From contig CM000151.3 of NCBI GenBank assembly GCA_000004695.1, positions 5,888,001 through 5,952,000 of the forward strand: a DNA stretch of 64,000 nucleotides, written 5' to 3'. Numbering within the stretch: the first letter of the stretch is position 1; every line of letters begins with the position of its first letter. Below are positions 16,915-17,270 of the stretch, piece by piece. This DNA is from Dictyostelium discoideum. Its lineage: Eukaryota. Both the position numbers and the translations under genes were made by a program. The notes below the pieces were generated by a model. It searched no databases and was not told where the DNA came from. It was given only the letters and a program-made list of their open reading frames with translations.

Positions 16915-17270
16915 AAAACCTTTGATAAAAATAAAATTATTATTAAAATATTTTATTTTTTATTTTCATCTTTTATTGCTGGAGTATACCATGTTTCATT
17001 TTCCAAATCAGATAATCCTGGCAAAATTTTGATAAAATAAATATTAAAATAAAAATAAAATAAATATTCTTTGATTATTAATTTATTTATTAGTGTATCT
17101 TATTGTTTTTATACAAATTTACAATATTTCCTACTGATTTTTGAAAATGGAACTTTTTTACAAGTTTTCCAGGATTAATTGATTTGGAAATTTTTAAAAA
17201 TGCAGCAAAAAAAAGATGAAAATAAATAATAAAATATTTTAATAATTATTTTATTATTATCAAAGGTTTT
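16915..17270. mobile_element. Foldback / MITE-like element: imperfect inverted repeat with ~115-bp arms (16915-17031 and 17161-17270) around a ~130-bp core.
   Basis: The left arm is aaaacctttgataaaaataaaattattattaaaatattttattttttattttcatcttttattgctgg...ttccaaatcagataatcctggcaaaa. The reverse complement of the right arm is aaaacctttgataataataaaataattattaaaatattttattatttattttcatcttttttttgctgc...ttccaaatcaattaatcctggaaaac. Aligned by eye this is roughly 85% identity. Confidence 0.5.

Follow-up and report, generated by a model that had tools for sequence, protein, structure and literature searches.

A long inverted repeat lies between the malate synthase gene and a gene for a dsRNA-binding protein on chromosome 2 of Dictyostelium discoideum AX4, which raises the question of whether it is a chance product of AT-rich DNA, the relic of a mobile element, a palindrome that never moved or the source of a hairpin RNA. 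The stretch of DNA analysed here (the window) is 64 kb long, and its G+C content of 12-36% in 1-kb steps is that of Dictyostelium-like DNA. Chromosome coordinates were obtained from the offset of DDB_G0275737 (chr2:5,899,852-5,901,855), which has the same length and strand as the ORF at 11852-13855. The locus contains the following features:

15117-15797 and 15900-16832, + strand: the two exons of malate synthase, upstream of the foldback element
16848-16878, + strand: four AATAAA signals of malate synthase, directly before the insertion point; the stop codon ends at 16832
16892-17306 (AX4 chr2 ~5,904,892-5,905,306), no strand: the whole foldback element, 415 nt, 16.1% G+C, delimited by the repeat termini and the empty site
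16892-16901, + strand: left terminus GAGTTTCCCC, which reads GAATTTCACC in strains L008 and L009 and adjoins the conserved flank GAATAATCAT
16892-17037, + strand: left arm, 146 nt
17000-17021, + strand: left half of the inner stem, TTTCCAAATCAGATAATCCTGG, 22 bp and G+C-richer
17038-17155, no strand: spacer, 118 nt, unpaired and AT-rich
17156-17306, + strand: right arm, 151 nt
17169-17190, + strand: right half of the inner stem, CCAGGATTAATTGATTTGGAAA
17297-17306, + strand: right terminus GGTGAAATTT (reverse complement AAATTTCACC), the same in all four strains compared
17995-18888, + strand: downstream gene for a dsRNA-binding protein of 297 aa, with one dsrm domain at residues 5-68 (Pfam)

The upstream ORF carries the Pfam domains MS_N, MS_TIM-barrel and MS_C and is 100% identical to the AX4 protein. 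Its mRNA presumably ends at the AATAAA signals at 16848-16878; the Logan contigs all break in a poly-A run 18 nt past the stop codon and are uninformative on transcript ends. The downstream product fits RbdA (DDB_G0275735; 297 aa, dsRBD at 4-70), and an exact look-up of the 297-aa sequence returned no record.

Extent and strength of the inverted repeat

The bounds of the element were set by the repeat termini common to four strains and by the empty site of a close relative, L007. When the four left arms are aligned with the four reverse-complemented right arms, the repeat reaches a common terminus, [G/A]AATTTCACC. A sequence-only reading of this DNA had described an inverted repeat of about 355 bp at 16915-17270, which was essentially correct but fell short by about 20-35 nt on either side. 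The same was true of its arms, given as about 115 nt at about 85% identity: gapped local alignment pairs 16903-17037 with 17156-17284, with identity at 114 of 140 columns (81%, gaps counted), and a repeat finder returns 16902-16977 and 17208-17283, a 76-nt outer part that is 89% complementary.

A chance origin had been thought unlikely, and the computed scores bear this out. The inverted-repeat score of 142 is the strongest of 1,590 sliding 430-nt windows over the 64 kb (next 90, median 23), and the runners-up are merely poly-A against poly-T, while 500 dinucleotide shuffles scored 32.6±5.0 with a maximum of 54. Folding energies are -111 kcal/mol for the + strand RNA (z -13.2), -106.5 for the - strand RNA (z -11.9) and -85 for the DNA (z -11.9). 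The element is identical in L001, an independent second D. discoideum assembly (GCA_054883475.1), and is therefore no assembly artefact. The inverted repeat is thereby confirmed as real and beyond chance.

Insertion in one Dictyostelium clade

Orthologous loci of about 10 kb were reached via the malate synthase cluster in nine Dictyostelium genomes: D. discoideum (L001, L008 and L009), cf. discoideum (L006 and L007), D. citrinum (L005), D. dimigraforme (L004), D. firmibasis (L003) and D. purpureum (L002). Searches of these loci with nhmmer found the element in AX4, L001, L008, L009 and L006 only; neither arm nor the spacer was detected at the orthologous loci (~10 kb each) of L007, D. dimigraforme, D. 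citrinum, D. firmibasis and D. purpureum. A neighbour-joining tree built on 4,736 gap-free columns, (L003,(L004,(L005,(L007,(L006,(AX4,(L008,L009))))))), has 100% bootstrap support at every node. The carriers, which are the D. discoideum strains and one cf. discoideum (L006), form one clade with L007 as its sister, so that a single gain explains the distribution. The insertion thus dates to an ancestor that D. discoideum shares with one cf. discoideum lineage, after L007 had split off. Unannotated and clade-specific, it offers a presence/absence marker for the D. discoideum species complex.

In L001, L004 and L006-L009, malate synthase is followed by rbdA. The spacer between malate synthase and rbdA measures 1,157-1,190 nt in genomes with the element, compared with 606 nt in L007 and 510 nt in L004, and the distance between two conserved anchors is 676 nt in AX4 against 111 nt in L007. 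Global alignments with L007 and L004 cannot be relied on in such low-complexity DNA, and the right junction was solved via L008 and L009, where the alignment with the L007 spacer starts immediately past the element (score 102-104; maximum of 49 null values 93). The junction based on AX4 is not significant, with a score of 76 against the null maximum of 93. Both insertion junctions are therefore the ends of the inverted repeat. With slashes marking the junctions, the filled site reads GAATAATCAT/GAATTTCACC…GGTGAAATTT/AAT·TTATTAATAAATTAAAAAATCC and the empty site of L007 reads GAATAATCAC·ATA·TTAATAATAAATTTAAAAATCC. The empty site is contiguous in both L007 and D. dimigraforme.

The insertion point lies in AT-rich DNA, 59 nt past the malate synthase stop codon and beside its poly(A) signals. 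A target-site duplication was sought by comparing the flanks, …AATCAT/ and /AATTTATT…, with the empty CAC·ATA·TTAAT; it could comprise at most AT or AAT, which is uninformative in 85% AT DNA.

Origin and decay of the element

The reading that we favour, with rather modest confidence, is that the element is the relic of a non-autonomous foldback or MITE-like DNA insertion. In this reading, a unit of about 415 bp that already had its arms of about 146 and 151 nt inverted around a spacer of about 118 nt was inserted past malate synthase; it would have been moved in trans by a transposase that recognized its termini and would now probably be selectively neutral. Such an element had been suggested by the sequence-only reading, and the resemblance has been strengthened by what the comparison revealed: an element that is clade-restricted and non-coding, with a clean empty site, junctions at its termini and no local source. 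Like MITEs and foldback elements, it has terminal inverted repeats, is small and non-coding and shows an insertion polymorphism with an empty site. More specifically, it resembles long-TIR MITEs in being small (415 bp) and AT-rich, in having two long inverted arms that fill nearly the whole unit around a short spacer, in its position beside the 3' end of a gene, in its presence or absence between close lineages and in having its junctions at the repeat ends. It differs from them in having no recognisable target-site duplication, no demonstrated second copy and no known autonomous partner.

No counterpart of an arm or of the spacer was detected in L007 or L004, with which the flanks are shared. 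A palindrome made by local inverted duplication or template switching was rejected on this ground, no arm being ancestral local sequence in either relative. Junctions at the repeat ends, together with the lack of a local source for the arms, are predicted by a mobile foldback or MITE-like unit and not by local inverted duplication or template switching.

Human PATRRs are palindromes of a few hundred bp and more than 80% AT, with an asymmetric centre, that are polymorphic and prone to deletion between individuals. The element shares their length, AT-richness, asymmetric centre, polymorphism and deletion-proneness. It is conceivable, although we consider it rather unlikely, that the element is a non-mobile palindromic insertion of this kind: foreign or filler DNA captured at a break, made palindromic by fold-back repair or template switching, which never transposed and was unstable. 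Its occurrence as a single copy in everything searched (the 64-kb window and the orthologous loci), its very AT-rich composition and the lack of a recognised target-site duplication agree with this, and the arm deletions, the spacer expansion and the above-background divergence described below are typical of unstable palindromes. However, PATRRs are not insertions with defined termini, and the element shows no breakage or translocation. Both of its junctions coincide with the repeat ends, and the relatives with an empty site have no counterpart of the arms, which argues against an inverted duplication of local sequence.

The age of the arm differences also bears on this alternative. Some arm-specific differences, an 11-nt indel and CAGAT versus CAATT, are common to all strains, and the arms were therefore already imperfect in the common ancestor, soon after insertion. 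This is expected of a copy of an older element and not of a freshly made palindrome, since fresh fold-back gives perfect arms.

The element has since changed fast. Between AX4 and L008, identity is 77% in the left outer arm, 87% in the left inner arm, 90% in the spacer, 88% in the right inner arm and 82% in the right outer arm, compared with a background of 94.7% in the upstream intergenic DNA, 95.5% in the intron and 96-98% in the rest of the spacer between malate synthase and rbdA. The arm-to-arm score is 132 in AX4 and 58-72 in the other strains, which reflects a rearranged left outer arm in L008 and L009 and, in L006 (strain ACTFIY of cf. discoideum), the loss of part of the outer right arm and an (ATAAAA)n-like expansion of the spacer by about 110 nt (~5915-6027). 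At 17100-17125, AX4 lacks a 19-nt segment, TTGTTGAAATCTCTTATTG, that is present in L006, L008 and L009; this segment is one copy of a short direct repeat, TCTTATTGTTT, and was therefore probably deleted by slippage in the AX4 lineage. RNAalifold keeps only the middle and inner stems, without a compensatory double change in them (covariation term +1.5), and the outermost ~35 bp of pairing do not persist across strains. None of these data indicates constraint, and the element decays fast. In the 22-bp inner stem, which the four strains share, the sole changes lead to G·U pairs on the + strand.

Several observations speak against a transposon relic: the search of the ~64-kb window and the orthologous loci revealed no second copy, no target-site duplication is recognisable, and the termini do not fit the Tdd/Ginger2 elements. 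In addition, D. discoideum transposons are said to cluster with each other, whereas the element stands alone between genes. If dispersed copies exist, they would constitute a family of short foldback elements in a genome with poorly characterised DNA transposons.

Tdd-4 has 145-bp TIRs (TG…CA) and belongs, together with Tdd-5, to the Ginger2 elements. Like the element, these cut-and-paste transposons are from D. discoideum and combine long TIRs with AT-rich targets. The Ginger2 superfamily has short non-autonomous derivatives, such as the 252-bp Ginger2-1N1_NV, and the Tdd/Ginger2 features include TGTNR termini, a 5-bp target-site duplication and an RTATAY target (PMC2836005). The element, by contrast, has the terminus TGAGT (AX4) or TGAAT (L008) on the left and, in reverse complement, TAAAT on the right. 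A 5-bp duplication is not found at its ends, whether AATCA is compared with ATTTA or ATCAT with AATTT, and the empty site does not fit RTATAY. Membership in Tdd/Ginger2 was rejected on all three counts.

The thug-S and thug-T elements (class of Glöckner et al. 2001) are alike in that they come from the same organism and belong to a DNA-transposon class. This class is said to make up 0.1% of the D. discoideum genome (PMC5633606). According to PMC4894637, thug-S carries an intron and is the source of multicopy miRNAs. By that description, thug-S differs from the element, which has no evident gene or intron and matches no reported miRNA.

The inner third of the arms is G+C-richer (30-35%) than the remainder, and in AX4 the inner arms read outward as short ORF tails that end in …ILPGLSDLENETWYTPAIKDENKK and …SFPGLIDLEIFKNAAKKR, each followed by a stop codon. 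These tails might suggest the relic of a duplicated gene end (exon and 3' UTR) or a tiny divergent gene pair, and a 25/26-nt match to the right inner stem occurs in the HATPase_c_4 (PF13749) ORF of an uncultured Chlamydiae MAG (L018 4684-4737), where its translation, FPGLVDLE, has the frame of the AX4 arm. However, the frames are not conserved between strains: a 5-nt indel disrupts the left-arm frame, and a stop codon interrupts the right-arm frame in L008 and L009. The arm peptides had no Pfam match at E≤10, and the 40-aa left-arm frame had no relative among 5.8 billion proteins. The similarity to the Chlamydiae gene stops at the seed without any extension; kinship was rejected and the match judged to be chance. 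A scan of prokaryote genomes for the inner-stem motif gave three matches, where about four chance 19-mers are expected in 596 Gb, and a scan of metagenomes gave one, also judged to be chance. An origin from a gene end is thus effectively refuted. As far as its frames and protein comparisons go, the element is non-coding.

The hairpin-RNA question and the neighbouring rbdA

A further possibility, compatible with either origin, is that the element is a young hairpin-RNA locus (hpRNA or proto-miRNA) on the + strand, transcribed for example by read-through from malate synthase and diced; we regard this as improbable. The likeness to hairpin-RNA and young miRNA genes that arise from inverted repeats lies in the long imperfect hairpin and in the inner stem, which tolerates only one-strand G·U changes. 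The hairpin is very stable on both strands, as a stable precursor should be, and in L008 and L009 the + strand folds about 23 kcal/mol better than the - strand (-85.7/-84.8 versus -62.5/-60.7 kcal/mol). One-sided changes in the stem keep G·U pairing on the + strand, for example at 80/458, 118/430, 125/423, 128/420 and 135/413. By our own reading of the reliably aligned blocks, changes that keep G·U pairing number about 7 versus 1 (n≈6-8), and the flanking + strand genes have no such asymmetry (65 versus 61). All four strains have preserved the 22-bp inner stem. Long hairpins are also known as sources of small RNAs in D. discoideum, as in the case of a Skipper fragment (PMC2175303).

Other observations point away from a hairpin RNA. 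The G·U asymmetry has p≈0.07 with n=8, and this + strand bias is a hint at a hairpin-RNA role that is too weak to carry the claim. The main stem lacks compensatory double changes (covariation term +1.5), the outer end of the stem (~35 bp) is lost across strains, and the whole element evolves faster than other non-coding DNA. Young hairpin-RNA genes differ from it accordingly, since it has no known small RNAs, no covariation and no above-background conservation. The upstream sequence is A-rich, unlike the reported start-site motif of pri-miRNAs, which is T-rich and then G. The Rfam search at E≤10 over 16000-18500 gave no match to the element, its sole hit being a spurious HIV frameshift outside it. 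Neither the sequence of the element nor its chr2 coordinates occur in the supplements searched for Liao 2018 and Edelbroek 2024; it has no entry in the D. discoideum lncRNA tables searched, and its sequence does not occur in the paper texts searched.

The fullest version of this idea combines the two readings: a foldback insertion would have become a lineage-specific, endogenous source of hairpin RNA, with malate synthase read-through folding into a stem of about 130 bp that is diced, and selection would preserve the + strand pairing of the 22-bp inner stem by admitting only G·U changes. We consider this very improbable. If it were true, the locus would be a miRNA or siRNA gene observed just as it emerged from an amoebozoan mobile element, and small RNAs that map to the element would provide a dated example of the birth of a hairpin RNA from an insertion.

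The sequence-only reading had also linked a possible hairpin RNA to the dsRBD gene next door. A conserved hairpin-RNA gene is at odds with an element that evolves faster than neutral-looking DNA, lacks covariation and is absent from the miRNA and lncRNA tables searched. A functional link to rbdA was likewise rejected: the gene occurs without the element in L007 and D. dimigraforme, and the knockout of rbdA leaves miRNA levels unchanged (PMC4894637). The proximity of the element to rbdA looks like coincidence and is best taken as such.

In the published rbdA knockout construct, the left homology arm (-999 to -552 from the ATG) corresponds to 16996-17443 of the window. It begins inside the left arm of the palindrome, and the element is therefore not deleted in rbdA- strains. 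A palindrome of 415 bp may be unstable in cloning and assembly, and it may complicate the cloning of this homology fragment. RbdA itself varies strikingly among close relatives (L004 and L006-L009), with tblastn identities of 76-89% and called products of 261-297 aa, whereas the malate synthase exons are 97-98% identical; much of this variability is probably due to a poly-Asn tract.

Three tRNA genes lie in the window, all on the - strand: tRNA-Gln(TTG) at 19958-20030, tRNA-Asn(GTT) at 46171-46245 and tRNA-His(GTG) at 59195-59266. Just past rbdA, D. dimigraforme has a reverse-transcriptase gene (RVT_1; L004 8552-9724, - strand), which is consistent with tRNA-targeting retrotransposons.

Two other segments of the spacer between malate synthase and rbdA stand out. 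The first, 17398-17553, is a second segment that seems to be specific to the same clade, nothing corresponding to it being present between AAAAAGAG and GTGAATTATTTTT in L007. Within it, a G+C island, GTGGCTCCACCAGCACCGCATAAATAACTTAAGTGATG (~17426-17463), precedes a poly-A tract of 35 nt (17496-17531). The segment has no match in Rfam, and its make-up is reminiscent of a retroposed fragment. The second, 17561-17660, is the best-conserved block of this spacer (96% identity to L008 and 92% to L006). It is recognisable in L007 (GAATTATTTTTAAAGAA…TTCTGGAAC.CACATTTTTAGG.TATG.AAGTTC) and partly in D. dimigraforme, and is a candidate for a regulatory element of rbdA or a small RNA.
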